Shown here: positions 5,640 to 40,939 of the stretch, piece by piece
Position numbering within the stretch: position 1 is the stretch's first letter
How the letters are laid out: every line of letters begins with the position of its first letter
Virus record (IMG/VR): IMGVR_UViG_3300036791_000462
Span: 43,111 to 107,110 of that record
DNA length: 64,000 nt
Strand: one strand, 5' to 3'
Origin: a virus
Made by a program: the position numbers and the translations under genes
Notes under the pieces: model-generated
Told to the model about the DNA's origin: nothing
The model's input: the letters and a program-made list of their open reading frames with translations, nothing else
The model's database searches: none

Positions 5640-8494
5640 GCCACCCTCGGGCGCAGCACCCCGGTGAGCCGATTGCCCCGACGGGCGCGGTTACCTGTTG
5701 GTTCCTGGGTGCCTGCCAGGATCGCGTTGGTGCGCGCGGTCAGGCCCTTCAGTTCTCTGGCGGCAGCGCGCTGCTCGTCGCGGGTGCCGAGAATCACCTC
5801 GTGCGGGTCCGCGACGAGCCCGCCGTGCTGGGACACGCCCCACGCCCGGTCGTAGTACGGCTTCGCGGCTTTCTGCAGGTCCGCGACAACCTGTTTCTCG
5901 GCCGGTGTCGGCTCGCGTTTCTGCTGTTTGGCAAGCTCCTCGACCTGGCGTTCCAACTCGTAGTAGTGGTGGCCCGGCCCGATCTCCTTCGTCCACCACA
6001 GCGGGTTGGTGTTGACCTGAAGCTCGGTCGTCAGCCCACCGGCGGACTCGGGTGCGCGCAGGATCAGGGTCGTGTCGCCGTACCCGTTCTCCGTCGAGCG
6101 GTTCGACCCGTTCGCGTCCACCAGACGGCGTTTCATCCGCTCCACCGTCCAGCCCTTCGCAGCGACCTGCTGGCGGATCGTCGCGAGCGTGTGTTCGAGA
6201 TCCTGCGCGGTCGGGACGGTCACCGTCGCACGAACCGCGTCGTGCAGGTCAGAGAAGTCGTTCGCGTGACCCAGCGACGCCTGCTTCGCAATCGCTCGCT
6301 TCAGGCTCTTGATCGGCGCGACGATCAGGTGCGGCTGGTCCATGTTGTGCTGGATGTCCTGCCCGGTCTGCTGGAAGCTCTTGCCCTGCGAAATGTCGTG
6401 CTTGGTCCCGCCAAGCTGGTCGATCACGCCGGTGCCGATGTCGAGGATCTGCTGCAACGCCGGAAGCGTTTTCGACTCGCCTCGCGCGAGAAGCTCCTGC
6501 GGGTCGCTGACCGGCTGTTTCTTCTTCTCCCCGTCGCCGGTGATCCCGAACTGGTCGCGCATCGACTGAAACTCCTTCGAGACGTTGCGGCCCACACGAC
6601 GCTCGACCTCGGGGTTCGTTCGGGTCGTCTGCCCGCCCGTTTTCCAGACGCCGCGCTTCGGGCCTGCCACGTCACGCACGCCAGGTAGCTGCTCGTGCGC
6701 CTTGGCGAGCACCTGCGCGTACGCGCGGTCGGCAGGGATCGCGTAGTCCGAACCGTCGAGCTTCTTGTCCTCCGCGCCCGACGGGAAGCTGATCTTGCCG
6801 TCCGGCAGCGCTTGGGCTACGAGCCTCGGTGGGTTCGGTCGGCCGGACGCTTCGTCCAACCCCTGGTTGGTGTCGTACACGTGGACTCGCGCGCCCATCT
6901 GCGCCGCCTTGTCCATCACGCCGGGGATCGTCGCGGACACGTCGCGGTGGACCGCGCGCATGATCACGTCGGGGATCATGCGACCGCCCGCCTCGGCGTT
7001 CGCACGCGCCTTCTCGGCACGGTCCTTCGCGCGGCTGATCGCGTCGTTCGTCGGCGTGCTGACGTAGGAGATGCGCGGGTTGACGTACCCCGCGTCGGTG
7101 AACGACTTGACGCGCTTGGCGACCTCGTCGGCGTTCGTGTTCGTGATCCCGTCCACGATCACGTTCAGCTTGCGCTTCTGCGCCTCCGCCATCACGTGCT
7201 GCGCGATGTCCCACGCCTCGGCGTACACCCGCAGGTTCGCCTCCGGGTCATCCGCCGAGCTTGCCTGAAACTCGGGTAGCTCCGCCTTGATCAGGTCCGG
7301 GTCGAGGAGCAGCGCGTTCTGAGGCAGCGCATCCGGGTCGTCAGGGTGCTTCTGGCTGAGCATGTGCAACAGCCCGCCCTTCCCGGCCGCGTACCCACCG
7401 CCGGTGAACATCACGGTCGGCTTGCCGGACGGCGCTTTCAGATACGAGTTCGTTTTGCTGAGCCCCCGGTCGTTGCCCTTCGCGTCCAGGTTGTGCTCGC
7501 GCAGCATCATGTCGATGATCCGCGCGTGCAGCTTCGCGCGGGACTGGTCCCACGTGCCGTCCGGGTTGCGGTACATCTCAGCGGTCGTCGGCCTGGTGGT
7601 CGCATCCTCCGCGTACGCCAACAGCGTTTTCTGGGACACGCGGCCCGCATCGTTGAAGTGAACCTCCGCTTGGCTCAGATCATGCTCACCGCGAACCTGC
7701 CCAGCGGCCGGGGTTGAGCGTGACAGCCCGACGCGACGCACCCGGCGGCCGATCCGCTTCTCCAGCGACTTGGTGCGCCGTTCGTACAGCGCCGACTGGC
7801 CGTGCGCGAGCGTCTGCTTACGGTCGTGGATCGCGTTGGTGTGCGCCTGCTCCTTCGCGAAGTGCTCCGCCGCCGCCGCGTGGTCACCACGTTTCGCTGC
7901 CGCGTTGCCCGCCTTGCGTTCCTGGGTCGCGAGCCGCTCCAGGCGCTGGCGTCCAGCGAGGTGAACCTTCTGCGCGTCGGTGGCCTCCTGTTTGAACTGG
8001 CGCAGGCTCATCGCCTCCGGGAGCGTGCCGCCAGTCTGCACCGCCTTACCCGCAGGATGCGGTTCGGGGGTCGCGAACACGGGAAACTTCCCGCCTCTGA
8101 CGCCAGCCCGGCGGCCCTTCAGCACCTTGATCTCGCCCGGCATCCGCTCCGTCGGTGGGCGCTGGATCGTTTTCAGACGCGGGCCTGAGTGAACCGCTTT
8201 CGCGATCCGGTTCTGCGGCACGACCTCGTGGGAGCGGAGCTTCGCGTCGGCAAACGCGCCGCCGAGCTTGTCGATCCACTTCCCGCCACGGCCGCGCGGG
8301 TGCAGCACCTCGGTCCAGTCAACCTCCTGCAGGCCGGTGAGCGCCAGGTCGAGCACGCCTGCCTGCTCCCACAGGTCAAGTTCGGTGTGCGACACCCAGC
8401 CGATCCGGTCCAGATCGTCGGTGGTGGCGAGCCCCCGGCGCAAGAACTCCTCTCGGAGGGTGGCGTTCTCGCGCGCAATGGTGGCAGCCTCCAT
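5636..8494 (-). CDS. Tagged polyvalent effector: zeta-toxin-like P-loop kinase + C-terminal RelA/SpoT-like nucleotidyltransferase
   Basis: Tag LQEVDWTEVLHPRGRGGKWI. Zeta motifs TGGGYAAGKG, LLDPDLIKAELPEF, NVIVDG, GRMIP. RSH-synthetase-like motifs PIKSLKRAIAK, DLHDAVRATV, GYGD, ELQV. Confidence 0.75.
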   Translation of the reverse strand: MEAATIARENATLREEFLRRGLATTDDLDRIGWVSHTELDLWEQAGVLDLALTGLQEVDWTEVLHPRGRGGKWIDKLGGAFADAKLRSHEVVPQNRIAKAVHSGPRLKTIQRPPTERMPGEIKVLKGRRAGVRGGKFPVFATPEPHPAGKAVQTGGTLPEAMSLRQFKQEATDAQKVHLAGRQRLERLATQERKAGNAAAKRGDHAAAAEHFAKEQAHTNAIHDRKQTLAHGQSALYERRTKSLEKRIGRRVRRVGLSRSTPAAGQVRGEHDLSQAEVHFNDAGRVSQKTLLAYAEDATTRPTTAEMYRNPDGTWDQSRAKLHARIIDMMLREHNLDAKGNDRGLSKTNSYLKAPSGKPTVMFTGGGYAAGKGGLLHMLSQKHPDDPDALPQNALLLDPDLIKAELPEFQASSADDPEANLRVYAEAWDIAQHVMAEAQKRKLNVIVDGITNTNADEVAKRVKSFTDAGYVNPRISYVSTPTNDAISRAKDRAEKARANAEAGGRMIPDVIMRAVHRDVSATIPGVMDKAAQMGARVHVYDTNQGLDEASGRPNPPRLVAQALPDGKISFPSGAEDKKLDGSDYAIPADRAYAQVLAKAHEQLPGVRDVAGPKRGVWKTGGQTTRTNPEVERRVGRNVSKEFQSMRDQFGITGDGEKKKQPVSDPQELLARGESKTLPALQQILDIGTGVIDQLGGTKHDISQGKSFQQTGQDIQHNMDQPHLIVAPIKSLKRAIAKQASLGHANDFSDLHDAVRATVTVPTAQDLEHTLATIRQQVAAKGWTVERMKRRLVDANGSNRSTENGYGDTTLILRAPESAGGLTTELQVNTNPLWWTKEIGPGHHYYELERQVEELAKQQKREPTPAEKQVVADLQKAAKPYYDRAWGVSQHGGLVADPHEVILGTRDEQRAAARELKGLTARTNAILAGTQEPTGNRARRGNRLTGVLRPRVA

Positions 8495-26011: not shown

Positions 26012-26014
26012 CTC

Positions 26015-26407
26015 TTACAGCGTTGCGCCTGCTGTCGCGAGGATGTTGCGCAGCGTGCCTGTCGGGATCGAGCCGGTGTGCGTTGGGACGATCACGCGCC
26101 TGCCGCCGTCGGGGTGTTCGAACACGGCGTGGCTGCCTTTCTGGCCGACTCGTTTGAACCCGGCTTTGCGGAGCATGCGGTGGATCTGCTTGGCTGTCAT
26201 CGCTGGCAGCTTCGAGGGTGGGTGCGCTGCGTGGATCACGCCTGAGAGCGTGAACTCGCCGCTGCGGTTACGCGGGTGCAGGATCTCGTCCCACGCGAAG
26301 TGCGACGGGTCGCGACGTTCGAGGATCAGGGTCGCGGCGCGCATCGCTACCGGTCGGCTCAGGCCGCGCGCTTCGTGGATCGCGACCTGGTCCCAGTAGC
26401 CGGGCAT
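26015..26407 (-). CDS. hicA: HicA-family RNase with N-terminal variant tag
   Basis: AWDEILHPRNRSGEF then AKQIHRMLRKAGFKRVGQKGSHAVFEHPDGGRRVIVPTH...IPTGTLRNIL. Confidence 0.85.
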   Translation of the reverse strand: MPGYWDQVAIHEARGLSRPVAMRAATLILERRDPSHFAWDEILHPRNRSGEFTLSGVIHAAHPPSKLPAMTAKQIHRMLRKAGFKRVGQKGSHAVFEHPDGGRRVIVPTHTGSIPTGTLRNILATAGATL

Positions 26408-28986: not shown

Positions 28987-29522
28987 GCGGGCTCGTCTTC
29001 GGTGGGGTGCGCGGGTGTTTCGGACGGCTCATCGGGTGCGATGGGCACGCCGTCGTCGTCGGTGTCGGGCACGTCGGCGTCGTCCAGTTCGGTGGGGTCG
29101 TCCGGCAGGTCAGTCACGCGGCGCTCCTCGCGGTTGGGTGTGTGCCGCCGACTGTACGCCCGCGCCCGGCGCGGACCGCAATCAGGCTTCGATCTGCGCC
29201 TGCGGTCTGTGTGGCAGCAGGCGCTCGCCGGACGGTAGCTCGCGGTGCGTCATGTCGATGGGCACGAGGTTGACGATGATCACGATCCCGCCGGGTTCGA
29301 ACGTCGCCGAGTGCCCGCGCTCCACCCTGATCGGCGTCAGGTCCAGTCGGCCCCACTCGCCGCGAACCTGCATCGCGCCACGGGTGATCCAGCCAACGTC
29401 CTTGATGTCCCACGTCACCGGGTCGAGGTTGCGAACTGTCAGGTCCGCGTAAAGCGCGAGCGCGATCAGCTTCGGTGGTGCCCAGACCTCGTCGGTGCCG
29501 ACGGTGACGAGCGCGTGGGCGG

Positions 29523-29732
29523 TCACGCCGTGTCGGGCGACTGGTCTTCGGACAGGCCCGAGCGGTCCATGTCAAGCAGGTAGGTTCCGACCCGGTCGGA
29601 CAGGTTCTCCCTGTCGGTCGTGTCGAGGTCGGTGTCCGCGTTCAGTTGCTGGCGGATCTGCTTGAGCCCTTCCCGGTCGGGGAAGCGGCGCTCGATCTCG
29701 TCCGCGTATGCGTTTGCGTCCATAGCGCTCAT
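29523..29732 (-). CDS. Small helical protein directly downstream of the effector array
   Basis: 69 aa; position compatible with an immunity or chaperone gene. Confidence 0.45.
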   Translation of the reverse strand: MSAMDANAYADEIERRFPDREGLKQIRQQLNADTDLDTTDRENLSDRVGTYLLDMDRSGLSEDQSPDTA

Positions 29733-29733
29733 C

Positions 29734-32409
29734 TTAGGCTAATCCCTCGGTTTTGAATGTCCGGTCCAGGTCGCTGACGTTGATGCCCTTCTCGGCCAGC
29801 GGGCCTAGTGATGCTGCGTCTCGCAGCCGTGCCAGATACGCCTGTGCCGGGGAGATCTTCATCACTCCCAGCGCGTTGGACACGTCCCGGTGGATCCGGT
29901 CGATCTGCTCAGCCGGAATGTTTTGGCCCTGCATCCACCTGTCGGCGACTGTCATCGCGTGGTGATGCTCAGCGCTGCGCACTCTTGGCGCTTCCGCTGT
30001 CACCGGTCGCGGGGTCGGCGCTGACGGTTGGTCGATCTGGTCGCCCGCGACCCACAGGCGTCCGCCGTCTTTGAGCACGACCAGCGCGTTGTTCTCGTTC
30101 ACGTCGAAGACCGTGCCGTCCAGTTGCCGTCCTGAGCCTGCCAGCGCGAACTTGACCTGGTCGCCCGCCTGCACCTTGCGTCCGCTGGCGGTGGTGACGG
30201 TCGGCATCTCCGTTTTGATGTCGGACAGGTCGGGTGTGACGACGGGGTCAAACGTGCTGTGCGTGATTTGCTTCGCGTCGGGGTGAAGGAGCGCGCCTCG
30301 TAGCGTCTTGACTCCTGGTCGTGACTGTTGCGCGAGCGCGATCAACTCCTGGTGCTGGTCGGCGGTGGCGCGCTGGAACTTCAGTTCGCGGAGCTTGGAG
30401 CGGCGCTGCTCGTCGCTCAGGCCCGCGCTGCGCATGATCGCCCCAACCTGCGCACGGTATTTCGGGTAGGTGCCGCGCACGCGGTAATCCATCGGGTGGC
30501 GTTTGACGGCTTCGAGCACGTCGGTCATCCCGTAGCTGCGTAGCCAGTCGGCGACCTCCAGGTGTCCTGTCTCCTCGGTCAGCGCCTCCTCAACGTTGAC
30601 GCCGAACCCCTTGTAGTCCTGTGCCTGGATGCCGCCGAGCACGCCGACGCCGTGGTTGATCTCGTGCTGGAGGATCTCCAGGTCGTTGTAGAAGTTCAGC
30701 CGCTCGTTGTCGGTCTGCTGCTTACCTTCGGCGCGGGTGGTGAGGAAGTCGCTGGCGTTGTCGAGGTAGCGCTGCTTGATCCCTATCGACCCGTTCCAGC
30801 GGTGGATGCCAGCGGCGTTGCGGGGGATCCGCTCGGCGTCCACGTGCTTGACGTTCTGCTCGGTTTCGTAGCGCTTGGCGAGTTCGTCCGCGCGGCCGAG
30901 TACGTCGGTCAGCAGTTCGTCCAGGTTCTTCGGCGCTTGGCCGTGTGGCAGCCGGGTGCGGTTCTGCGGGACGATCTCGACCTTCGAGATGTTCGGAGCG
31001 CGTCTGAGCGCGCCCCCGATGTACTGCGGCTCGACGGTGAGTCTCACGGTCGAGCGGTCGGGCAGGACCAGCTTGCTGGAGAGCGTCGGCGTGGTGCCGG
31101 GCTCCTGGGGTAGCTTCACGGCCCCGAGACGTTCCAGTAGCTGCGTCGCGCTGTACACGTCCATGTTTCCTAGCTCGTGCAGCAGCGCCTTGTTGTCACG
31201 GCCGACCAGCGCCGCTTTGATCGCCTCGTCCTTCTGCACGGCCTCCTCGCGCTTGCGCTTGATCTCGTCCTGAGCCTCCTGCCAGACGCGCACGTCGTCG
31301 GCGCGCTGCTCGGGCGTCACGATCATGTGGTCCCAAACCATCGAGCCGTGGCCCGCGTTGACGACCTCCAGCGGACGTTGGTACTCGGGGTCTGAGGGGT
31401 TGCCGCCTCGGCGCATGTGCAGCACGAGCGAGTCGGGCGGCTGGCCGGGGCCGACCTCCTTGTCGAACCGGGTGACGCCCTCCACGCCTTCGGGGAGGCT
31501 GCCTGCGGATAGCTCGCCACGGTTCTGGGACACCTTCATCCGCCAGCCCGAGTCGATGGTGTGCAGCGCGTTGACGACAGTGTTGGCGTTGTCGCCCGGT
31601 TTGACGTGGGCGAACGGGTTCTCCTGGATCGCGGCGAGCTTCGCGCTCGCGACCTCGCTGTCGGTTGGGCGAAACGCGGTGACCTTGCCGACCTGCACGC
31701 CGCCGGGGGTGTCGTCCACACGCAGCGCACGGCCCTGCCCGTTGGGGTGAACGAACTCCATCCAGTCGTCGCCGTTTTCGTTGACGACCTTCGGGCGGCT
31801 GTAGCCCGCACCGCGCATCGAGTTGCGAACGGTCTGCGGGTCGCCGTGGGTCAGCAGCGCGGCGACCGGGTCGCTGTTCGGGATCGGGGGGTGCAGTTCG
31901 GCGCTGGCGTCGGCGACGGTGCCGCCTGGTGCTTCGCCGAACCCTGGTCCCTTGAGCGTCAGGTGCAGGTCCGCTCCCTGCGTGTGCGAACGGAAGACCT
32001 GTTTGCGGTTGTCGCCGCTGACGTAGTGGAAGTCAAGCGGCATCGGGTGCCCGCCGCGAGCGGCGGTTTCGAGCGACATCGAGCCGCTGCGGATCTCGCT
32101 CATCGTCTGGCCGATCAGCCCGGCGGCGAGGTCGTGCGACGGGTGTGTCTCATCGAGGATCGCGGGCGGGCGCTCCAGCGTTTCGATCCACTTGCCGCCG
32201 CGTCCTCGCGGGTGCTCAAACGCTTTGAAGTCCGCTTCGCTGATCTCGCCGTACAGCGACTGTTCGATCTCGCGGTCGATCTGCTCAAGCTCGGCGCGGT
32301 CCTGTGCGCTCATCTGATCCCAGTTGCGCCGGGCCTGTTCGATCTCCTGCTCGGTGGGTTCCTCAGCCCCGACCTGGCCGTCGGTGATCTTCAGCGGTTC
32401 GGGGTTCAC
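29734..32409 (-). CDS. Tagged polyvalent effector with zincin metallopeptidase and SH3/KOW-like domain
   Basis: Tag ISEADFKAFEHPRGRGGKWI; LQHEINHGV...VEEALTE; VQAGDQVKF...GTVFDV...ALVVL. Confidence 0.65.
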   Translation of the reverse strand: MNPEPLKITDGQVGAEEPTEQEIEQARRNWDQMSAQDRAELEQIDREIEQSLYGEISEADFKAFEHPRGRGGKWIETLERPPAILDETHPSHDLAAGLIGQTMSEIRSGSMSLETAARGGHPMPLDFHYVSGDNRKQVFRSHTQGADLHLTLKGPGFGEAPGGTVADASAELHPPIPNSDPVAALLTHGDPQTVRNSMRGAGYSRPKVVNENGDDWMEFVHPNGQGRALRVDDTPGGVQVGKVTAFRPTDSEVASAKLAAIQENPFAHVKPGDNANTVVNALHTIDSGWRMKVSQNRGELSAGSLPEGVEGVTRFDKEVGPGQPPDSLVLHMRRGGNPSDPEYQRPLEVVNAGHGSMVWDHMIVTPEQRADDVRVWQEAQDEIKRKREEAVQKDEAIKAALVGRDNKALLHELGNMDVYSATQLLERLGAVKLPQEPGTTPTLSSKLVLPDRSTVRLTVEPQYIGGALRRAPNISKVEIVPQNRTRLPHGQAPKNLDELLTDVLGRADELAKRYETEQNVKHVDAERIPRNAAGIHRWNGSIGIKQRYLDNASDFLTTRAEGKQQTDNERLNFYNDLEILQHEINHGVGVLGGIQAQDYKGFGVNVEEALTEETGHLEVADWLRSYGMTDVLEAVKRHPMDYRVRGTYPKYRAQVGAIMRSAGLSDEQRRSKLRELKFQRATADQHQELIALAQQSRPGVKTLRGALLHPDAKQITHSTFDPVVTPDLSDIKTEMPTVTTASGRKVQAGDQVKFALAGSGRQLDGTVFDVNENNALVVLKDGGRLWVAGDQIDQPSAPTPRPVTAEAPRVRSAEHHHAMTVADRWMQGQNIPAEQIDRIHRDVSNALGVMKISPAQAYLARLRDAASLGPLAEKGINVSDLDRTFKTEGLA

Positions 32410-33932
32410 GTCTTCCTCCGCTTCGCTGCGGCGGCGGCTCTGCGTGCCGTCTCGGCTTCCACGTCGGCGTCCTGGCGGCGCTGCTGTTCAGTCCAGACGA
32501 CGGCCTGTAGCTCGTGCGGTTTGAGCCCCACCCTGTCGGCGACGGCGTGCACACGGTTCGCGGTCCACAGGTAGCCGCTGTTCTTGGCGGTGGGTTTACC
32601 TGAGCCGATCACGATCTCGCCCGCCTTGTCGTAGTCGGCACGGGCGGTTTCGCCGAGCAGCGCGCGGGCCATCAGCGTGTCCACGGTGACGGTCGTCGGC
32701 TGGTCGGGGAACGCGAGGTTGTTGTAGAAGCTGCGGGTCTTCGGGTAGCTCAGCACCGCGTCGGGGTTCTCGCCTCGGTACAGGCGCAGCGCGGCTTTCA
32801 GCGAGTTGCGCATCATCGTCGGGCGCTCCAGCCTGGCAGCGAGCGCGTTCGGGTCTTCGTTGGGATGCGCCCTGGCGATCTTCATCGCGCGCAGCGCCGC
32901 TTCGAGGTTCTCGTACTTGCCCGCTTTCGGGCCGGTCTGCCACTGCCAGCGCATGCGCGGTGAGGTCGCGGCAACCATCGCGGTCAGCACCGCCGGGTCC
33001 ACGTTGTTCTTTGCGGCGACCTGCCCGATCAGGTTGTGCGCGTCGGCGTACCAGCGCGCGTCGTGCTCGCCGTGACCGGTGCTCATCGCCTGGCGGTACA
33101 TCTCCTCGAAGCGAGCCTCCGCCTGGGCGTCGGTTAGCTCCACGCGGCTGTGTTCGTGTCCGCGCTGCTCCAGCGGCGTGACGCGGCCGAGGTCGCCCTG
33201 TTCCTGGGCGGTCGGTTCGCGGGTGTGCTTGTCCCACTCCTCGGGGAGTCCCAGCCCGATGCCCTTCTTGCCGGGCGCGGTGTAGACGGTGACGTGCGGC
33301 GGCGGCACGGGGATCTTCTCGCCCGCCTGTTCGGAGAGCTTGTCGTACAGATCGGAGGCACCCTCGACTTTTGCGGGGATCACGAGCGAACGTCGATCAC
33401 CCTTCTCGGCGATACGCCACGGCGGTCCGATGTGCGTGACGCTCACCGGCGCGTTCTGCACCTGGTTGGCCATCTGCTTCAGCGTCGCCTCGTCGGTGAT
33501 GGAGGTCGCGCGCTTGACCCGCCGGGAGTCGAACATCGTGACGTGCGGGTTTCGCACCTTCTCCCAGCGCTCACCGCCGACGGTGATCGTTTGCGGCAGG
33601 TCGGGCAGCTTGACCTCCAGCCCCCGGTAGTGCTCGCCCTTGTGCAGCGAGGAGGTGATCCACTTGCCCCCACGTCCGCGCGGGTGCTCCAGGTCATCCC
33701 AGACGCTTTCGGTTAGCTCGCTGTCGCCGTTGCCCGCGAGCGCCTGCACCTGCTGCCAGAACTCCCAGTCGTCGTCGTGGGTCGCGTCGTCCGGTGGGAG
33801 CGACAGGTCGGGCCAGCGGTCGCTGACAGTCGCAGCGGCTTGCGCCCAGTCTGGGCCGCCGCGTTTGACGACCTGCAGATCGCCGGGTTTCCAGGCGAAG
33901 CGGTCGGTGGGGTCGGGTTCCTCGACGGCCAT
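32406..33932 (-). CDS. Tagged effector: 2H phosphoesterase + HhH-glycosylase-like (DUF7178-like) domain
   Basis: Tag LTESVWDDLEHPRGRGGKWI; two PHVT motifs; WY..AH, AATSPR..W..N, PKTRSFYNNL, VTVD, ELQAVVW. Confidence 0.7.
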   Translation of the reverse strand: MAVEEPDPTDRFAWKPGDLQVVKRGGPDWAQAAATVSDRWPDLSLPPDDATHDDDWEFWQQVQALAGNGDSELTESVWDDLEHPRGRGGKWITSSLHKGEHYRGLEVKLPDLPQTITVGGERWEKVRNPHVTMFDSRRVKRATSITDEATLKQMANQVQNAPVSVTHIGPPWRIAEKGDRRSLVIPAKVEGASDLYDKLSEQAGEKIPVPPPHVTVYTAPGKKGIGLGLPEEWDKHTREPTAQEQGDLGRVTPLEQRGHEHSRVELTDAQAEARFEEMYRQAMSTGHGEHDARWYADAHNLIGQVAAKNNVDPAVLTAMVAATSPRMRWQWQTGPKAGKYENLEAALRAMKIARAHPNEDPNALAARLERPTMMRNSLKAALRLYRGENPDAVLSYPKTRSFYNNLAFPDQPTTVTVDTLMARALLGETARADYDKAGEIVIGSGKPTAKNSGYLWTANRVHAVADRVGLKPHELQAVVWTEQQRRQDADVEAETARRAAAAAKRRKT

Positions 33933-33942
33933 TCTACCTATT

Positions 33943-35535
33943 TTAGCGCACATCCTGTGCTTGCGGCGGCAGGGCTTCCAGGATCACGCTGCGGTTGCCC
34001 CACTGGTCCTCGTTGACCTCCGCGACGCGGAACGTCGTGTTGCGGGGCAGCAGCACCTCGGACTCGGGTAGTCCCGAGCCGCCGCCGATGTGCAGTCCTT
34101 CCTCGAACGCGAAGGCGTGGATGCCAGCCGGTAGCCGGATCGAGGTCACCTCGTCGCCGGGTCTGGCGGCTATCGGGCTGCGCAGTGACGTGGACACGAA
34201 CGCGGGATCGCGGACCTCGTCGCCGACGTGCAGGTTCGCGAACTGGCCGACCGGGCCGCCTCGGTAGACGGTGACGTTCTCCTTCAGGGTGGACTTGCCG
34301 ATGGCGGAGTCGAGCCGGTCGATCATCTGTCCGACGGTCGCGCCGCTCGGGGGTGTCGAGTACCACGCCGACGGCGAGTCGCGGGTGACCTCGGGGTTGA
34401 GGTTGCGCAGGAACTCGTTGACGTGCACGAACCCGGACGCCTGGTAGGACGACAGCGCCCACTGTTCGTCGGTTGTCGTGCCGCTGCTGGTGAACGCCTT
34501 GTTCGCGAACTCGCGGGCGGATTGCATCTGGGTTTTGAACTCGCCCTCGTCGGATGGTTCGCGAGCACCGAACCCCTGCGTCTGCCACGACTCGGGCTCG
34601 GGCCACTTCGCAGGCTCAGGCTCTGGCGGCTGCTCGCGCAGGTCAAGCTCGCCTTTCCAGTGGGAGCCGATCATCAGTTCCTTGCCCGGCCAGTTGCGCG
34701 TCTTGGGCGGGCCGGTGCCGGTCGAGTAGTCGTGACGTTCGGGTGGGGTTTCCCACCACCAGTGATCGAGCCCCCATCCGGCTAGCTCCGCTTCGGAGCC
34801 GAACTCCCCGGCGGTCAGCTTGCGCTCCAGTTCGGTCATCGTCTGCTCGGTGGCGCGGCTGGCGATCTGTTTCCAGCGGCCGTCCTTCTTGGCGTCGGCG
34901 AGGATCTGTTTCTGCACCGCCTGCTTGTTGCCGGTCCAGACGAACCCGCGTCTCGCCCAGGCGTAACCGCCGACGGACACCGCTTCCACATCGGCCTTGT
35001 CCACCCCGGCGTCGCGCAGCGTGCCGAGGAAGTGGTTGGTGAACGCCGCCCCGAACCCGTTGCCCTGCTCGGAGCCGCGCAGGTAGATGTTCGACAGTTC
35101 GGCATGCCGTTCGCCACGGAGGTTCGGTGGCTTCAGCGTGACGCGAGCGAGCCCCACCGGTTCGATCTCCCCGACCTTCTGGAGGTTGAGCCACACCTCC
35201 CCGTACAGGTTCTGGGTTTTGGTGCGACCGGAGCGGACAGCGACGATCCCGGCGTGCTGGAACCCGTCCATCGCTTTGGCGAAGTCCTCGCCGGTGAAGC
35301 TCTCCCCGACACGTGGCGCTGCGGGTTTCGCGACACCTGGCTCGGGCGCAGATGTGTGGTGGTGGATGCCGCTGGTGATCCACTCGCCGCCCCGACCGCG
35401 TGGGTGTAGCCACTCGATGAAGTGCGCTTCCTGTAGCTCCTCGCCGTCGTTGTCGGTTGGCACGTCCACGGTCGCGAGCAGGCGTGCGACCTCGTCTTCG
35501 GGTACGCCGAGGAACAACGCAGTCGGAACGGTCAT
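33943..35535 (-). CDS. Tagged effector: GNAT acetyltransferase + VIP2/Alt-like ADP-ribosyltransferase
   Basis: Tag LQEAHFIEWLHPRGRGGEWI; QGNGFG, GGYAWARRGF; Y......VNEFLR, VYRG, FVSTS, ESEVLLPR (R-S-E class). Confidence 0.85.
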   Translation of the reverse strand: MTVPTALFLGVPEDEVARLLATVDVPTDNDGEELQEAHFIEWLHPRGRGGEWITSGIHHHTSAPEPGVAKPAAPRVGESFTGEDFAKAMDGFQHAGIVAVRSGRTKTQNLYGEVWLNLQKVGEIEPVGLARVTLKPPNLRGERHAELSNIYLRGSEQGNGFGAAFTNHFLGTLRDAGVDKADVEAVSVGGYAWARRGFVWTGNKQAVQKQILADAKKDGRWKQIASRATEQTMTELERKLTAGEFGSEAELAGWGLDHWWWETPPERHDYSTGTGPPKTRNWPGKELMIGSHWKGELDLREQPPEPEPAKWPEPESWQTQGFGAREPSDEGEFKTQMQSAREFANKAFTSSGTTTDEQWALSSYQASGFVHVNEFLRNLNPEVTRDSPSAWYSTPPSGATVGQMIDRLDSAIGKSTLKENVTVYRGGPVGQFANLHVGDEVRDPAFVSTSLRSPIAARPGDEVTSIRLPAGIHAFAFEEGLHIGGGSGLPESEVLLPRNTTFRVAEVNEDQWGNRSVILEALPPQAQDVR

Positions 35536-38138
35536 TCCGGTTTGACTCCGTTCATCCAGTCACCGATCTGCCGCACCCAGCCGGGCCACTCCACCGCTTT
35601 GTAGTACGGGCCTGTCACGAGCGATGCCGCCTCCGCGAACGTTTCGGTCGCGTAGCCCCCGGCAATGTTCGAGTACGGCCCGGTGGCGCGTCGCTGCGCC
35701 GCTCCCTCGTAGTCGGGGTTGCCCGCCGCGTACTGGCTGAGCCCCTTCGCGACCGCGCTCCAGTCGATCTCACCGTTGTGCTTTGGCAGCATGTCGATGA
35801 ACTGCTGGCGCTGGGTGTCGCTCAGCGCTTCCCACAGCCCGTGGCCCCACTCGTGGCGCAGCACGCCCGCCGGGTCATTGGTGGACGTGAACTGGTCGCC
35901 AGGTTTCGATGGCTTCGGGCCGTAACGGTCAGGGAACTCGTCGGCGAGCCGCTGGCCGACAGACATCGCGGGAGCGTTGATCGAGGTGAGGTTCTGAGGC
36001 ACGTTGCGGCTGGCGGTCACGAACACGTCCCGGACGCCTCCGGGGGCACGGCCATAGCCCTTTTCGGAGATCAGGATCTGGTTGTCCTCGACGGCGGGCC
36101 AGCGGTCACGCAACGCCGCGAAGCGCGGCAGCGCATCGTTCGCGGCGTTCGCCGCACGCACCGCTCGGTACGCGCGTTTGCCGTCCTCGCCAGTGTCGGC
36201 TGCGACCGCGCCACGGTAGTTCTTGCGCTGCGACGCGAGCGTCGTCGCTCTGAACTTGTCGGTCAGATCCTGCGCTGAGTTGGTGATCGTCTCGACGGCG
36301 TTCGGGTCGCTCAGGAACGCGCCCTTGCCGATCCGCTCGGGGTACTCCAACAGCTTCGAGTTGACGGTCGCGCGCAGTTCGCCGGTGTCCCACATCGACA
36401 CGAACACATCGACCGTGCCCATGTCGAGTTGGTCGTTCGCCTTCGCGTTGGCGAGGAAGTCGGGAAGCTGTGCCAGCCCCGTCTCCAGGTCGCGCTGTGC
36501 CCGGTCGGCGTAGCCACTCGCGGCCATCTGCGCCGCTTCGGCGTAGCTGCCAGCGAGCCTGGTCGGCGTGCGCCTGGTCGGCGGTGGCGACGGCGGCGGG
36601 TTCAGCAGGTGGCTGATCGCCTGCACGGTCTGCTCGGGCGTCTGCTGCGAGGAGTCAACGATGTGAGTCGCGCCGCTTCTCGCCGCGTCGATTCGGGGAG
36701 CGTCAAGCTGGTCGCGTTCGGTGATTGCCGCGTGCGCCTGCGGGACGGTCAGCCCGCGCGACTCCGCCCGGCGCTGCGCACGGACGTGCGGGTCGGCGGT
36801 CAGGAAGATCCGGTCGTGCGCGTTCAGCGCGCTGCCAGCGTCGCGGCCGTCGGCAACGAACAGTCCGCCTTCGGCGATGCGCTGGTGGATCGCCGAGTCC
36901 ACAGCGCTGCGAACCTCCGTCTCGCCGCCGAGCGCGGACGCGGCACGGTCCACGTTGGTGTTGCGGATCTGCTGGGAGATGTCACGGCCGTCAAGCGTGA
37001 CAGTCGAACCGTCAGCGCGGATCCGTCCGGCGCGGAGCGCTCTGACAGGGTCGATTCCCATCGTCTTCGCGAGCCCTGCCGCGCGGTAGTGAGCGCCGGT
37101 ATCGACGTACGTCCCGCCGAGCCGTTGCGCGAGCCTGCGAGCGACGGTGCTTTTGCCGGACGCGGCCGGGCCGTCGATGGCGATCACGTGCGCGGTGCCG
37201 AGCTTGTCGATCCATTCGCCGCCGCGCCCACGCGGGTGCTGTAGCTCCGTCCAGACGCTTTCCTGTATGCCCTGTAGCTGGGCGAGTGCTCGCGCCACGC
37301 TGGGGCGCACCTCCAGCCCGCTGAGCCACTGCTCGACCTCCCCTGGGTCTGCGACCACCCTGATCGCTTCCTCCAGCGCCAGAGCCGCCCTGGCGTCTCT
37401 GGCGGCCTGTGCCGGTTCGGGCACCGTGTCACCCGGCCCGAGCGGTTTCAGCCAGCAGCCGCAGCCGGTGTGGATCGGCGGTGGGATCGCGTCGAGCACG
37501 CCCCACGGCCACGCTTTGCCCGCGAGCGCGAGGCAGCCTCGGGTGTGGTTCTTGCGGTCGCCGAGCATCCACTTCGCACCGAGCGGCGACCGTGCTTTGA
37601 CGAGCGCGTTCTCGACGTGCGCGGTGGCTCTCGCCATCATCGCCTGTTGGCGCAGCTTGGAGTAGTGCTGCTCGCGGCTGATGATCGCGTTGATCCGCGC
37701 CTGCTGTTTGCTGTCGGGAAGCTGCCCTGCAGCGTTCAGGTCGTCCTGGACGCGCGCCAACGCTTTCTGCTGAAACAGCCGCTCGTATTGCATCTCCCTG
37801 GCGACAGCTTCGCGGATCACGGCCGGGTCGGCGTTCGGGTAGCGGCTGCGCAGTTGCTTGGTCAGCCAGTCGGCCGAGTCAGCGTGGTGGCGGCGGAACA
37901 GCGCACGCAGGATGCGCAGCGCGACGGCGATCTTCAGGCCGGTGACCGCAATCCCAACCGGCACCTTCGCGGCAGCGACAGCGGCCTGGGCTGGCAGCGT
38001 GACGGTGACCGCCGGTATCGCCGCCACGCCGACGGCGACCTTAGCGGCCTGCCCTGCAGCAGCGGCTTTCAGGATCTGCTGGACCGACGACGACTGCGGC
38101 GGCTGTTGGGGTTGCTGCCCCTGGTCGGGAACGGCCAC
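35532..38138 (-). CDS. MuF-like head morphogenesis protein fused via the tag to cytidylate kinase and a zincin toxin domain
   Basis: Downstream of portal. MuF-like C.ALAGK...PPPIHTGCGC; tag IQESVWTELQHPRGRGGEWI; VIAIDGPAASGKST, VDTGAHYRA, ADGRDAG, FLTA (Cmk); RHEWGH...SQYA...ETFAE. Confidence 0.8.
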   Translation of the reverse strand: MAVPDQGQQPQQPPQSSSVQQILKAAAAGQAAKVAVGVAAIPAVTVTLPAQAAVAAAKVPVGIAVTGLKIAVALRILRALFRRHHADSADWLTKQLRSRYPNADPAVIREAVAREMQYERLFQQKALARVQDDLNAAGQLPDSKQQARINAIISREQHYSKLRQQAMMARATAHVENALVKARSPLGAKWMLGDRKNHTRGCLALAGKAWPWGVLDAIPPPIHTGCGCWLKPLGPGDTVPEPAQAARDARAALALEEAIRVVADPGEVEQWLSGLEVRPSVARALAQLQGIQESVWTELQHPRGRGGEWIDKLGTAHVIAIDGPAASGKSTVARRLAQRLGGTYVDTGAHYRAAGLAKTMGIDPVRALRAGRIRADGSTVTLDGRDISQQIRNTNVDRAASALGGETEVRSAVDSAIHQRIAEGGLFVADGRDAGSALNAHDRIFLTADPHVRAQRRAESRGLTVPQAHAAITERDQLDAPRIDAARSGATHIVDSSQQTPEQTVQAISHLLNPPPSPPPTRRTPTRLAGSYAEAAQMAASGYADRAQRDLETGLAQLPDFLANAKANDQLDMGTVDVFVSMWDTGELRATVNSKLLEYPERIGKGAFLSDPNAVETITNSAQDLTDKFRATTLASQRKNYRGAVAADTGEDGKRAYRAVRAANAANDALPRFAALRDRWPAVEDNQILISEKGYGRAPGGVRDVFVTASRNVPQNLTSINAPAMSVGQRLADEFPDRYGPKPSKPGDQFTSTNDPAGVLRHEWGHGLWEALSDTQRQQFIDMLPKHNGEIDWSAVAKGLSQYAAGNPDYEGAAQRRATGPYSNIAGGYATETFAEAASLVTGPYYKAVEWPGWVRQIGDWMNGVKPE

Positions 38139-38166
38139 AGCCGAAGCCTACGGGCGAACCGGGTGG

Positions 38167-38667
38167 TTAGCTCAAACCGTTACCGTTGCGCCGCAGGATC
38201 GTGTTCTGCACTTCGCCCTCGGGCGTGCAGGCCCACACGATGATCTCGACCCCAGCGTCACCCAGACGGCGCTCGCTCGTGCGGTACACCAGCGGCGGGT
38301 CGTAGCGGACGTGCTTGGTTCCGCCCTCCGCCATCTCGTTCAGCCGGGGCAGAACACAGTCGCGCGGCTTGCCCATCTGCTTGGCTAGCTCGGTGCCGGT
38401 GAGACGCTTCCCGCTCAGCGCCAGCAACGTCTGCGCACGCGACTTCTCGTAGTCCAGCTTGGGATTGACCGCCGCGTCCTTGGCCGTATCAGGATCGGTG
38501 CGCCGGGCCATTGCGTCACCGGAGAGGTCGGCCTCCTTCGCGCTGAGGACGGCGATGTCGTCCCCGTAGTCGATGCCCTCGGCCTCGTACGCCTGCTTCA
38601 TCTTTGCCAGGAAGACGCGGACCTCCTCGGGGGTCGCATCTTCTGCTGGGCGCGAGACGATCTGCAT
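38167..38667 (-). CDS. Winged-helix DNA-binding protein
   Basis: ARRTDPDT...LTGTELAKQMG....VLPRLNEM; start uncertain. Confidence 0.55.
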   Translation of the reverse strand: MQIVSRPAEDATPEEVRVFLAKMKQAYEAEGIDYGDDIAVLSAKEADLSGDAMARRTDPDTAKDAAVNPKLDYEKSRAQTLLALSGKRLTGTELAKQMGKPRDCVLPRLNEMAEGGTKHVRYDPPLVYRTSERRLGDAGVEIIVWACTPEGEVQNTILRRNGNGLS

Positions 38668-38695
38668 CCCGCCACCCTATCGCGTTAGCGCACGG

Positions 38696-40789
38696 TCAGT
38701 GCTTGCCGTTGCCGTTGGCTGCCGCTTCGGCGAGCATCTGGTCCACGACCTCGCCGATCTCCTCGTCCCAGAAGCGCATGATCTCCTCGACACGTTCGGG
38801 GCTCAGGCCCTCGTCGGCTGCGGCCTGCTGCATCTGCTGTCCCTGTCCCTGGTTGCCCTGGTACTGAGACGAGAAGCCCTGAGCGCCGTACGGGTTCATC
38901 TCGCCGTCGGGGCCTTGCCCCGGCACCATCGCCTGCGGCGCGAACGGATTCGGCCCGGACGGAATCAACGGTGGTGCTGGCCCTCCGCCGCCGCCGGGTT
39001 GCGCGTCGGTGGGGGGAGGTCCGGCCATCTGCTGGGCCATCAGCGGATCGACATACCCCTCAGGAAGGATTCGCTCGACGGCGGCGGCCGGGTCGGCGAG
39101 TTCGAGCCCCTGGCCGAGCGCGACAGCGAGCAGCGTCCGGCTTAGCTCAAGGTTGGTGTTGTTCGGATCGAACGTGCGCGCCAGGTTCGCGATGCTGGTT
39201 ATCAGGTCGGACATCTGCCGCTTGAGCGGCGAGGGCATCGAGAACTCGTAGCTGAGGTTGCGTTCCGTGTCCTCCTCATCCTCCGTCTGGCCGTGGTAGG
39301 CCTCAGTCAGGCCCTGCGCGCCGTAGACGGCGGTATCCATCGGCTCGGTCATCGAGGACGGCGGCTCTGTCTGTGCGGGTGACGGTGGCGTCGCGCCCTC
39401 CCCGCCGGGCACCTGCTCGCCGGGCTGCTTGGACTTCAGCTTCGCGCGTTCCTCCGGGGTCAGTTGCGTCGGGAGCGTCCCGGCGTCCACCGCCTTCTGG
39501 ATCACCCGGTCTGTGAACGTGCGAAACAGGCCCTCGAACAGTTCCTGGAACGCCTCGACCTTCTTCATCACCGGCAACTCCAGCGACGCAGCGGTCGCAA
39601 GGTTCGCGTTTGACTGGTCGCCGAGATAGTGCTGCGGCCACGTTCCGGCGGAGATCTGGGAGCGGATCATCTGCGCGTCCTGGGACGCTTGCGCCGCCTG
39701 GGTGGAGACGGAGAACGGTTCGGTCGTGACGCCCGCTGATTCGTTCAGCATCGACGCCGGTCGCGGCCCTGGTGTGATCACCCCCGCGTCCGGCGAGTCA
39801 ATCGACGTGGCAGCGAGCGTCGAGGTGCGCGACAGTGCCTGCGCGGCGATAGCCGCGACCTGCTGCGGAGAGCCCTTGACAGTTCTCCTCATGATGAACG
39901 CTGCCGCTGCCTGGGTCATGTCCACCCGTGCGGCCATGAAGTCGTTCAGCGCCGCCATCCACTTGACCATTCGGCGCATCGCGGGGATGCCGAACACCTG
40001 CTCGGTGCCCCGGTTGATCGCGATGTGGTAGACGAGCCCTTCGCCGAGCTTCTCCGGTGGGCACGGCGGATCTTCGGTCAGCAGCAACCCTGTTTCGGAG
40101 TCGGTCGCGGCGAGCGACTGGTAATACTGGACGACGGGCTGACCGCCCTGCTGCAGGCTCGCCGCCGACTTCAGGCTGACGCGGTCCATCGTGTAGTCCC
40201 ACTGGTATTCACGTCTGCGGGCGACGTAGTAGAGGACGCGCAGGCGGTTCTGGGAATCGCGGACGGCGTCCTCCACGAGATCGTGGTTGAGCATCCCGAG
40301 CTTGACCTTCCCGTCGTCGCCGTTCTCGAAGAACAGGATGAACAGGTTCGACTGAAGCACCAGGTCGGTGCAGAGCGCCACCTGGGCGGGGAACGTCGTC
40401 AGCGCCGCCATGTTGTCCGGATCCGACCACGCCTCGTCCACGACTTCCTGCACCTTCTCGTCCACGCACTTGGGCTTCGGGACACCGCGACCAAAGATGA
40501 ACTGGCAGGAGATGTCCACGTTCGCCCCGGCGACGGGATCCTGAATCCAGACCATCCGGGCCTGCGCGGCCATCTTCCGGCGCTCGATAGCCTTGACCTC
40601 CTGCGGCTGCCCGCCGATCTGGTCAAGGACGTAGTAGCCGAGCATGTCGAGTTCCTTCTGCATCGCCCGGCGCTCGACATCGCTGGCCTCAAGCAGTTGC
40701 AGGCGGTCCTGGTCAACGACCGTCTTGCCGGTGCGCTGCTCGACGGCCTCCTGGAGCTTGCCGATCAGGCCGCTACTTCCCCGCGCCAT
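38696..40789 (-). CDS. Portal protein
   Basis: DPVAG..VD....FIFGRG, HIAINR....FGIP, PQHYLGD..NANLATA.SLELP; position between TerL and MuF. Confidence 0.85.
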   Translation of the reverse strand: MARGSSGLIGKLQEAVEQRTGKTVVDQDRLQLLEASDVERRAMQKELDMLGYYVLDQIGGQPQEVKAIERRKMAAQARMVWIQDPVAGANVDISCQFIFGRGVPKPKCVDEKVQEVVDEAWSDPDNMAALTTFPAQVALCTDLVLQSNLFILFFENGDDGKVKLGMLNHDLVEDAVRDSQNRLRVLYYVARRREYQWDYTMDRVSLKSAASLQQGGQPVVQYYQSLAATDSETGLLLTEDPPCPPEKLGEGLVYHIAINRGTEQVFGIPAMRRMVKWMAALNDFMAARVDMTQAAAAFIMRRTVKGSPQQVAAIAAQALSRTSTLAATSIDSPDAGVITPGPRPASMLNESAGVTTEPFSVSTQAAQASQDAQMIRSQISAGTWPQHYLGDQSNANLATAASLELPVMKKVEAFQELFEGLFRTFTDRVIQKAVDAGTLPTQLTPEERAKLKSKQPGEQVPGGEGATPPSPAQTEPPSSMTEPMDTAVYGAQGLTEAYHGQTEDEEDTERNLSYEFSMPSPLKRQMSDLITSIANLARTFDPNNTNLELSRTLLAVALGQGLELADPAAAVERILPEGYVDPLMAQQMAGPPPTDAQPGGGGGPAPPLIPSGPNPFAPQAMVPGQGPDGEMNPYGAQGFSSQYQGNQGQGQQMQQAAADEGLSPERVEEIMRFWDEEIGEVVDQMLAEAAANGNGKH

Positions 40790-40939
40790 CTGGGACCACC
40801 ACCCTCCACCCTTCGAGGCGCGCGCTGGGCACGCACTCGATCTCGCAGTTGAGCGCGTCCTCGATCACGGCCTGGCCGCTTTCTGGTAGATCGAGGACGT
40901 ACACGAGTTGGCGCTCGTTGGTCAGATACAGCCGCTCGG

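Follow-up and report, generated by a model that had tools for sequence, protein, structure and literature searches.

What are four large genes of multi-domain enzymes doing beside the portal gene of a phage, and do their products share a common fate? The window, the whole stretch of 64,000 nt that was analysed, comes from an uncultured, high-GC phage of 107 kb (86% complete); no isolated phage was matched by this phage or its relatives. All features located below lie on the minus strand. The portal gene (38696..40789, 697 aa; PHROG 10963 portal, E 8e-23) is followed by a gene for a 166-aa protein (38167..38667) and then by the array, which comprises g868 (35532..38138), g530 (33943..35535), g515 (32406..33953) and g891 (29734..32409), encoding 868, 530, 515 and 891 aa. 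The first-pass annotation had described a tightly packed four-gene array after the portal, with two 4-nt overlaps and one 10-nt gap. The ORF coordinates confirmed the array, its tight coupling and both overlaps (35532-35535 and 32406-32409); the g530/g515 junction depends on the start codon, a 10-nt gap being obtained with ATG 33932, where the gene call of the source record starts g515 (508 aa), and an 11-nt overlap with ATG 33953. The GC3 of the four ORFs was 0.85-0.87, which is of coding type.

The portal directly precedes the array here and at about 20 related loci, and portal homologues with 70-79% identity adjoin the same kind of array in relatives. The slot between portal and array is variable: the 166-aa protein encoded there in this phage matched only a PHROG family with no assigned function, and in relatives the slot is empty or holds a different ORF of 600-650 aa. 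After g891 come a 69-aa acidic ORF (29523..29732) and then genes for lysis instead of head genes; about 60 kb separate the capsid gene from the array. No promoter-like sites were found in the scanned stretch 28900-41500, and the three terminator-like matches within it were all weak and fewer than in shuffled sequences.

Each array gene encodes at least two unrelated domains: a cytidylate kinase (Cmk) and a zincin in g868, GNAT and an ADP-ribosyltransferase (ART) in g530, a 2H phosphoesterase and an HhH-GPD-like domain in g515, and a zincin and a beta-barrel in g891. All seven enzyme domains proposed at first sight were recovered, the support being strong for Cmk and for an Arg-type ART, and moderate for GNAT, 2H, the HhH-GPD-like domain and the two zincins. 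The Cmk domain of g868 (aa 317-510, 36609..37190) matched PF02224 with E 1.3e-34 and 120 bits against a 26-bit cut-off, and aligned with the Thermus thermophilus Cmk structure 3akc (E 8.5e-23), with the P-loop (GPAASGKST), DGRD and LTA..VRA.RR motifs in agreement; its 103 bits fell below the cut-off of 135.55 for the NCBIfam equivalog TIGR00017. The zincin-like domain that follows (aa 521-868, 35535..36578; HEWGH at 35841-35855) had no Pfam or PDB sequence match, and its look-alikes in the ESM Atlas (0.95) were Pro-Pro endopeptidase and metalloprotease clusters.

In g530, which starts with a leader and a junction tag, the ART (aa 326-524, 33964..34560; PF03496, E 6.5e-17) is of the R-S-E type, with R425, S448-T-S and E491-S-E493 as catalytic residues, and aligned with the Arg-ART Vis (4xzj, E 1.3e-5) with YRG, STS and ExE in register. 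No ART domain was present in the related arrays examined. The GNAT-like module before it (aa 57-300, 34636..35367; QGNGFG at 157-162) matched PF00583 weakly, at 18.6 bits under a 20.7-bit cut-off. It is 51-61% identical to modules that end the MuF-type ORF in relatives L013 and L034; homologue P0014 is on record with PF00583, and both P0014 and P0007 were named GNAT by JGI.

The conserved leader and tag of g515 are followed by the 2H module (aa 105-257, 33183..33641), for which two HxT motifs (HVT at 137-139 and 220-222) carry the assignment; the Z-scores of its fold matches (1vdx, MHV ns2, USB1, LigT, rotavirus VP3 and penguinpox cGAMP PDE) were low, at 3.7-5.5. The helical domain DUF7178 (aa 274-493, 32475..33134; PF23802, E 3e-18) resembled HhH-GPD glycosylases. 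Each of its best 21 structural matches was a chain of 8-oxoguanine glycosylase type; 20 are entries named Ogg/AGOG, and the other is 1xg7, which was deposited as a hypothetical protein. The Z-scores were 11.2 for 3knt (MjaOgg) and 8.8 for 1xqp (AGOG), values to be read with the caution needed for helical domains below Z 13. By eye, its PKTRSF and VTVDT look like the HhH-Lys and VDTH-Asp motifs. In g891, a leader, a tag and an alpha/beta region precede a gluzincin metallopeptidase domain (aa 483-715, 30265..30963; HEINH at 30652-30666), in which H582, E583, H586, E608, E612 and E613 were invariant (alignment A3). DPP III and M1 aminopeptidases were its fold matches with a middling Z of 8-9; the motif carries the call. 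A small Tudor/KOW/SH3-like beta-barrel (aa 735-803, 30001..30207; Z 7-8.7, rmsd 1-2.8 Å) and a low-confidence tail complete the protein.

The N-terminal domain of g868 (aa 1-293, 37260..38138) has the position of the MuF family, with one small gene between it and the portal; members of that family are head proteins of about 300 aa with a C-terminal H..CxC motif. H198, C202, H223, C226 and C228 were invariant (alignments A1 and A6), and the last three line up with CNCRC of SPP1 gp7, a resemblance that is not proof of homology. The domain had no match to PF04233 (Phage_Mu_F) at E<=5; a six-frame search of the genome gave just a spurious 13-bit match elsewhere, and two of 18 homologues reached the family below threshold (E 0.023). 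In hhalign against SPP1 gp7 the probability was 0.6%, with the CxC motif alone aligned. Because there was no Phage_Mu_F match, the name MuF-like refers here to position and the H..CxC motif only.

What the four proteins have in common is a short junction motif, [LI]xE[AS]x[WFY]xExxHPRGRGG[KE]W. It was found as IQES followed by HPRGRGGEW in g868 (aa 291-312, 37203..37268; the Cmk domain begins 8 residues further on), LQEA and HPRGRGGEW in g530 (aa 34-55, 35371..35436), LTES and HPRGRGGKW in g515 (aa 80-101, 33651..33716), and ISEA and HPRGRGGKW in g891 (aa 56-77, 32179..32244). The motif is shared by three proteins encoded outside the array: a HicA toxin (26015..26407; PF07927, E 3.5e-17) with the variant HPRNRSGEF, which recurs in relative G003; a 952-aa protein with a Zeta-toxin kinase domain (5636..8494; PF06414, E 1.7e-22) and the tag LQEVDWTEVLHPRGRGGKW; and a peptidoglycan (PG)-binding protein with two tags. 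The source genome thus holds eight copies in seven genes, each in the coding frame. On the coding strand, each of five related genomes has 4-8 copies, and a reversed-pattern control gave none.

AF2 models were built for g515 and g891, and the tag segment was predicted to be disordered in both (pLDDT below 50 in g515). Residues H, P, R, R and G were invariant and synonymous positions were free to vary; judged from this sequence conservation, selection acts on the tag at the peptide level. At E<=1e-3 the tag matched 392 cluster representatives, and a single protein had as many as 15 matched stretches. Among 74 tag representatives the cargo included PG_binding (19), Zeta (12), GNAT, HicA, ART, PolyA_pol, NUDIX and PHP. 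No published description of the tag was found.

Comparison with relatives whose portals are 70-79% identical showed that units of tag plus module have been inserted, deleted, fused or split. The cargo was not invariant, NUDIX, Zeta, HD-like and other domains being found, and homologues of the MuF-like domain with 52-77% identity carry Cmk, NUDIX, NUDIX + Zeta, or GNAT. Tags part the modules within single ORFs in L043 (2362 aa, four tags), L023 (three) and P0002 (three; the relative most similar in this protein), and the Zeta module of relatives lies inside a MuF-type ORF. In P0063, whose 2H and DUF7178 parts show 69% and 38% identity to g515, an extra tag and a module of about 250 aa stand exactly between these two parts. 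The flavour of the tag goes with the module downstream, that of g530 travelling with the GNAT module in relatives. The break between g868 and g530 is special to the source phage; those before the lead515 gene and the 891-type gene also occur in relatives, indicating that a three-gene array is the common state. With cassettes reshuffled and cargo variable, the locus is best described as an array of polyvalent proteins that is variable, evolves fast and is partly split. The first-pass picture of a polyvalent MuF protein split into tagged modules is therefore upheld by the single ORFs of relatives as regards the split and the tags; its MuF membership found no family match.

The sequence before the tag offers a further clue. 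An [LI]xE[AS] site stands exactly 10 residues before HPR in g868, g530, g515, g891 and at the second tag of the PG-binding protein, i.e. at five of the eight tags in the source genome, and at 24 of the 77 tags of the clade; the exact site is missing at this position from HicA, the first PG-binding tag and Zeta (LQEV). The same site is concentrated in a 494-aa protein encoded next to the capsid gene (13 copies against 1.3 expected, about 10-fold; 0/20,000 shuffles), whose scaffold/protease-like label is taken from weak PHROG links and composition only. This protein had no Pfam or NCBIfam match, and its sole PHROG match was a family with no assigned function. Its counterparts in four relatives have 12-14 sites each, including one that is only 44% identical, and permuted control patterns occurred 0-2 times in it, except for the spacing variant [LI]xEx[AS] (7). 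The capsid protein has two sites within its first 31 residues, and the portal has five (residues 12, 32, 348, 494 and 686; 0.97 expected, P 0.003). The site 10 residues ahead of HPR, common to cargo, scaffold-like protein and capsid N-terminus, is new here. In T4, the propeptides of head cargo direct proteins to the core and are cleaved off by gp21, a protease with cuts after Glu (PMC9026906). As a pattern, the distribution of [LI]xE[AS] resembles that of T4 head protease cut sites; no prohead protease or gp21 homologue was identified in the contig (86% complete).

Having the same tag and a probable head-protease cut site, all four products are most likely head cargo that is cut free and injected. 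We therefore consider it probable that the array encodes head-associated polyvalent effectors which are packaged, cut at the [LI]xE site and delivered to the host. The unit would be a cassette consisting of the [LI]-x-E site followed by [AS], the HPRGRGG[KE]W tag ten residues on, and one or two enzyme domains. The array would be expressed late, along with the portal, and the procapsid would take in the MuF-like domain and the tagged modules. Cleavage at [LI]xE by a prohead protease would then separate the modules, or remove the short leader of a stand-alone gene product, leaving the tag at the new N-terminus. The freed enzymes (CMP kinase, two zincins, GNAT with Arg-ART, and 2H with the glycosylase-like domain) would enter the host with the DNA, as would HicA, the Zeta kinase and the PG-binding protein from elsewhere in the genome. 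There, as infection begins, they may modify nucleotides, proteins, RNA or DNA, and also the cell wall.

The tag could alternatively be a processing signal only, with no part in loading. The junction would then be cut by the zincins of the array (as MPTase) or by a prohead protease, yielding units or stripping inhibitory leaders from pro-toxins, and loading, if it takes place at all, would depend on something other than the tag, such as the MuF-like domain or portal contacts. The tags do lie at module boundaries, and HExxH is 7-fold enriched in tag-bearing proteins, with at least one in every related array, which suits the reading as head cargo as well and agrees with the MPTase-driven processing that Iyer et al. 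suggested for polyvalent proteins (PMC5512222); toxin-type modules such as HicA, Zeta and ART would also gain from latency until cut. However, the strongest constraint, HPRxRxG.[WF], lies past the putative cut site and would be kept on the product, suggesting a role beyond cleavage. In several gene calls the HPR core is only 8-17 residues from the N-terminus, with room for little beyond the extended motif, so that nothing substantial would be released, and stand-alone tagged genes occur far from the array with no MuF domain as carrier. A signal for processing only is thus unlikely.

It is more doubtful still that the products are not virion cargo and that the tag docks late intracellular enzymes to a shared hub (a phage or host factor, for example the ribosome, RNA polymerase, a chaperone, a site on the membrane, or nucleic acid via R-G-R-G-G), assembling or localising them in the infected cell. 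A linear motif that is disordered and keeps its basic and aromatic residues invariant would suit docking, as would the scatter of tagged genes across the genome, the lysis genes downstream of the array and the lack of confirmation of Pfam MuF membership. Yet in all relatives the array goes with the portal gene and starts with the same conserved portal-side domain, the junction site is the one that abounds in the scaffold-like protein and recurs at the capsid N-terminus, the PHROG label of a Zeta-containing relative is 'minor head protein', and variants such as HPRDERGRF have no RGG character. Finally, a conserved DNA joint for in-frame cassette swapping with little peptide function, comparable to the conserved pre-toxin junctions of polymorphic toxins, is very improbable: indel and swap boundaries coincide with tags and copies within the source genome share 19-24 of 27 core bases, but codons vary (CGC/CGT/CGA/CGG/AGG; GGC/GGT/GGA/GGG) while amino acids are invariant, the motif is kept in very distant variants with different codons and flanks, and the runs of identity are interrupted and too short for selection to act mainly on them.

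Within the reading of the array as injected head cargo, one extension is more tentative, namely that the HPR tag with a lineage-specific protease site would act as a general, portable label, which a conserved head component might read so that any protein bearing it is loaded into capsids and, once cleaved, delivered to the host.

Comparative genomics has already revealed polyvalent phage proteins; the present locus adds a proposed rule of site, tag and cargo. Iyer, Burroughs, Anand, de Souza and Aravind (2017, PMC5512222) inferred head packaging, injection and peptidase processing for such proteins. As in the present array, unrelated effector domains (ART, GNAT, kinases, 2H, zincin MPTase and Zeta kinase) are strung together, encoded among portal and packaging genes, and diversify fast in architecture. 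In this phage, by contrast, the set is spread over four coupled genes and three tagged genes elsewhere, and a conserved site and tag head every module; the words 'conserved motif', 'interdomain', 'Cmk' and 'cytidylate' do not occur in the main text of that study.

The CTS/gp21 processing of IPI-III and Alt in T4 (PMC9026906) is similar in that head cargo carries short N-terminal peptides, the head protease cuts after Glu past a short motif, such sites abound in the scaffold, and an injected ADP-ribosyltransferase is among the cargo. Unlike in T4, the conserved peptide follows the putative cut site and the mature protein would keep it, and the tag is reiterated within polyproteins and common to hundreds of protein clusters. 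The ejection and inner-body proteins of phiKZ-like phages (PMC9026906, PMC7411985) are likewise cut after Glu at short motifs by a gp21-like protease, from propeptides that hold redundant sites; the present phage belongs to a different lineage of about 107-125 kb and combines recognisable enzymes with a constant tag.

In the MuF polymorphic toxins that temperate phages encode (Jamet et al. 2017, PMC5576092; Zhang et al. 2012, PMC3482391), a conserved portal-side N-terminal domain is also followed by variable toxin or enzyme domains, and transport inside the head has been predicted. These toxins carry one C-terminal toxin, whereas here there are many modules with a tag at each junction, and no Phage_Mu_F match, adjacent immunity genes or integrase were found. 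That immunity genes would not be interspersed, as the first-pass annotation had stated, proved correct: the junctions leave no room for extra ORFs, and only the 69-aa ORF comes after g891. Its homologues (57-58% identical) are located 0-18 nt downstream of the 891-type gene in L042 and L044 and are missing from relatives without that gene, which makes it a possible partner or neutraliser of g891. A search of the 107 kb (86% complete) for tyrosine and serine integrases found none. The lack of immunity genes and integrase fits the proposed function in host takeover or anti-defence, as opposed to that of an inter-bacterial toxin.

These results show that cassettes fused in some phages occur as separate genes in others, and the locus offers a testable rule, in which a cut site is followed ten residues on by a constant tag and then by cargo. 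If this rule is true, injected effectors could be predicted genome-wide, adding HicA, the Zeta kinase and the PG-binding protein in this phage, and it would become clear why such toxins can do without an immunity gene in a lytic phage. The rule might also be used for loading chosen proteins into phage heads in the laboratory. If the tag is indeed read as a portable label, it would represent an undescribed cargo-loading code in hundreds of phage and plasmid protein clusters, and would explain how stand-alone HicA and Zeta kinase genes become those of injected effectors. Of the individual enzymes, Cmk, GNAT-ART, and 2H with the glycosylase-like domain may serve to take over the host early on or to counter its defences.

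The four genes behind the portal were found with the ORFs, sizes and junctions described in the first-pass annotation. They are g868 (35532-38138), g530 (33943-35535), g515 (32406-33953) and g891 (29734-32409), all on the minus strand; at the third junction (g530/g515) the genes overlap by 11 nt or stand 10 nt apart, depending on the start codon, and the gene call of the source uses the downstream start. The window takes in bases 43111-107110 of the source contig, an IMG/VR virus sequence of 107,110 bases (66% G+C, estimated completeness 86%), whose minus strand carries nearly all genes. First in transcription order is the terminase large subunit (51226-52977), followed by about 10 kb of small genes, the portal (38696-40789), the gene of a 166-aa protein (38167-38667) and the four-gene array. 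The array is followed directly by a 69-aa ORF, two small ORFs, two endolysins and a HicA gene (26015-26407), which adjoins a tRNA-Glu(CTC) (25939-26012) on the opposite strand. The head genes are split. The capsid gene (L002:15975-17033, genome 15975-17033) and an adjoining gene for a 494-aa scaffold-like protein (L002:17552-19036, genome 17552-19036) lie outside the window, about 60 kb beyond the array; the distance between the portal and capsid genes, which share a strand, is about 60 kb. No integrase was found in the phage genome (86% complete). Within positions 28900-41500 the scan found no promoter-like sites and three terminator-like matches, all weak, with shuffled sequences giving more.

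All four array proteins carry the sequence [LI]xE[AS]x[WFY]x[DE]xxHPRGRGG[KE]W. The tag (HPRGRGG[KE]W) stands at residue 301 of g868, where it follows the conserved N-terminal domain; its positions in g530, g515 and g891 are 44, 90 and 66, respectively. The whole genome has eight copies in seven genes, all in frame on the coding strand; outside the array the tagged products are the HicA toxin, a Zeta-kinase protein of 952 aa and a PG-binding protein of 612 aa (L004:1547-3385, genome 39547-41385), the last with two copies. The HicA tag is a variant, HPRNRSGEF, found also in the related genome G003, and the gene has no HicB neighbour. In the 612-aa protein the first tag has a GGTAGGxF leader and precedes PG_binding_1, and the second precedes a region with a weak ParB-like match.

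The H, P, R, R and G of the tag are invariant while synonymous positions are free to vary, indicating selection on the tag peptide. Variation at synonymous sites also led to rejection of the tag as a DNA-level recombination joint. A nucleic-acid binder of the AT-hook or RGG-box type was set aside, since the widespread variants HPRDERGRF and HPRGEHGRW have no such character. The tag region was disordered in both AF2 models (g515 and g891), with pLDDT <50.

The upstream half of the shared motif, [LI]-x-E-[AS], follows the pattern of the T4 gp21 site, [LI]-x-E. The 494-aa scaffold-like protein contains 13 [LI]xE[AS] sites against 1.3 expected, a number reached by none of 20,000 shuffles of its own sequence. 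It has the highest site density of the proteome (12 times the average) and 13 of the proteome's 57 sites. Reversed or permuted control patterns occurred 0-2 times in this protein, the exception being the spacing variant [LI]xEx[AS], with seven occurrences. Its homologues in four relatives, one of them only 44% identical, have 12-14 sites each. In the capsid protein two sites fall within residues 1-31, before the Pfam capsid domain, and the portal has five (P 0.003). Five of the genome's eight tags, those of g868, g530, g515 and g891 and the second one in the PG-binding protein, have the site exactly ten residues ahead of HPR, and the other three have no exact site; across the clade the site occurs in this register in 24 of 77 tags.

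The head proteases of T4, phiKZ and SPN3US cleave after Glu behind a short motif (PMC9026906). Judged from these sequence patterns, the simplest reading is that a prohead protease would cut just ahead of each tag, which would separate the modules or remove the leaders and leave the tag at the new N-terminus. No prohead protease gene was identified in the phage genome (86% complete). Some stand-alone tagged genes have little beyond the extended motif before the HPR core, and retention of the tag on stand-alone genes, some nearly leaderless, speaks for a function in loading or delivery beyond cutting alone.

The seven enzyme domains listed for the array earlier (Cmk, two zincins, GNAT, ART, 2H phosphoesterase and HhH-like) stand, with support that differs from domain to domain. 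Cmk, which begins eight residues past the g868 tag, matched PF02224 (E 1.3e-34), and alignment to solved structures of the enzyme shows the P-loop and further conserved motifs to be intact; its score was under the NCBI equivalog cut-off, and it was the sole addition of the NCBIfam search. The ART domain of g530 matched PF03496 (E 6.5e-17), with its R, STS and ExE motifs in register with those of the arginine-specific enzyme Vis. The GNAT domain scored just below the Pfam cut-off; it has a QGNGFG motif, and among its relatives PF00583 is on record for one and the JGI name GNAT for two. Two HxT motifs mark the 2H phosphoesterase of g515, whose modelled fold resembled LigT, USB1, ns2 and VP3 (Z 3.7-5.5). 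The same protein matched DUF7178 (E 3e-18), and the top 21 matches of the DUF7178 model were all 8-oxoguanine glycosylase-type chains (HhH-GPD fold; best Z 11.2). By ESM look-alike scoring the HEWGH domain at the C-terminus of g868 resembles clusters of Pro-Pro endopeptidases and metalloproteases (score 0.95). In the HEINH domain of g891 the HExxH and Glu residues are invariant, and the fold resembles DPP III and M1 aminopeptidases (Z 8-9); g891 has in addition a small Tudor/KOW/SH3-like barrel. Several of these fold matches rest on middling Z-scores. VIA-align was used for the g891 and g515 folds because Foldseek was insufficient for both, giving only multi-domain noise such as nucleoporins with the whole g891 model and only weak rows with g515. 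PDB sequence searches with g891, g515 and the g868 C-terminus gave no useful match, and PADLOC gave no real match. An anti-defence role of the cargo is plausible, for example through putative 2H destruction of nucleotide signals or an Alt-like ART.

Among 50,697 records of isolated phages, none matched the array by megablast, so that a relative at the DNA level was absent; tblastn of the portal gave one archaeal-virus match (22% coverage) and nothing else, and tblastn of the MuF-like domain gave none. By these searches no cultured relative is available. Relatives were gathered from IMG/VR by one DNA-pattern scan and two protein-based scans, and about 25 loci were syntenic, with a conserved 122-aa gene, the portal (70-79% identity) and the array. 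Five related genomes of 110-126 kb, of which four have a completeness of 91% or more, contain 4-8 tag copies each, and the reversed-pattern control gave 0. The slot between portal and array is variable, holding here the 166-aa protein (C-terminal half winged-helix-like by eye) and in L041 and L048 an ORF of 600-650 aa, and being empty in L023, L042 and L043.

In the loci of these relatives the tag sits between modules within single ORFs. L043 has one ORF of 2362 aa, in which the N-domain, 712 aa, 217 aa, 727 aa and Zeta are each separated by a tag. In L041 the order is N-domain, tag, 726 aa, tag and Zeta (PF00293 (NUDIX) and PF06414 (Zeta) are recorded for P0005, the MuF homologue on this contig), and in L023 it is N-domain, tag, 278 aa, tag, Cmk, tag and GNAT. 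L042 and L044 have three genes, the first with the N-domain, tag, about 470 aa, tag and GNAT, the second with the conserved g515 leader, tag, about 490 aa, tag and DUF7178, and the third a tagged g891-like gene. Both relatives with a g891-like gene have the 69-aa ORF behind it, and relatives lacking the gene lack the ORF as well.

Change at the level of cassettes is visible in the relatives whose proteins are most like those of the array, P0002 and P0063, both from one 117-kb contig. In P0002, an ORF of 1167 aa, the N-domain and Cmk are 76% identical, and Cmk is followed by a different zincin (HEAGH) and then GNAT, each behind its own tag. P0063 is 69% identical to g515 in the leader and 2H part and 38% in DUF7178, and has an extra tag and a module of about 250 aa exactly between these parts. 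In the tblastn map of related loci the ART domain and the first part of g891 had no counterpart, and the g868 zincin had only one, a weak match in L043 (26% identical). The g868/g530 stop/start is the sole break special to this phage. P0167 and P0170 match 36-43% of g515 at 58-62% identity, the matching part being assigned to leader and 2H by analogy with P0063. Alongside it P0167 has a CCA-adding/poly(A) polymerase and an HD domain, and P0170 a RelA/SpoT-type HD and a NUDIX domain; these partners hint that such cassettes may serve in RNA-end repair or nucleotide signalling.

The array had been interpreted as a large polyvalent MuF protein split into tagged modules. This central interpretation is supported, with qualifications. 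Its modular part agrees with the division of the relatives' single ORFs by the tag, but the MuF part does not have a Pfam match behind it. The N-terminal domain of g868 is MuF-like by position and an H..CxC motif only, the Pfam MuF profile did not match it, and hhalign of the domain against SPP1 gp7 was not significant.

A 40-position tag profile detected 392 cluster representatives (E<=1e-3) among 1.84 billion proteins, with at most 15 stretches within one protein, and in general form the motif reads [WFY][DE]ExxHPR[GD]xxG[RK][WF]. P0054 and P0056 (5313 and 7334 aa), from one NCBI contig of 409,570 bases, have about 15 copies each of WDExKHPRGEHGRW. Cargo in 74 representatives includes PG-binding, Zeta kinases, GNAT, HicA, ART, poly(A) polymerase-type nucleotidyltransferases, NUDIX and PHP; the PG-binding architecture was commonest (19/74), and HExxH was enriched 7-fold in tag-bearing proteins. 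The tag is not universal, since HPR was absent from distant MuF-type arrays (portals 45-51% identical), and P0020 and the locus L055 (L055:10700-12301) have a different junction, GQFRPKRGG. The pattern of the latter, [WF]..KGT..G.FRP[KR]RGG, may represent a second tag type.

An exact-tag scan of cellular genomes gave 12 matches, about 10 of them by chance in short non-coding frames. The matches that appeared genuine number two to three, those in Nostocoides jenkinsii and a Solirubrobacteraceae MAG, with one in a Gemmatimonadota MAG (L061) as a possible third. The clearest in-frame tags, in Nostocoides jenkinsii Ben 74 (L066) and the Solirubrobacteraceae MAG (L067), are probably in genes of prophages or elements. 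The cellular matches hint at actinobacterial hosts and do not settle the host.

No description of the tag motif was found in the polyvalent-protein, MuF-toxin, polymorphic-toxin or other literature searched, an absence that is no proof. The locus belongs to the polyvalent phage proteins, a known class, and is of interest for its site-tag junction and for the occurrence of the same cassettes in fused and in split form.
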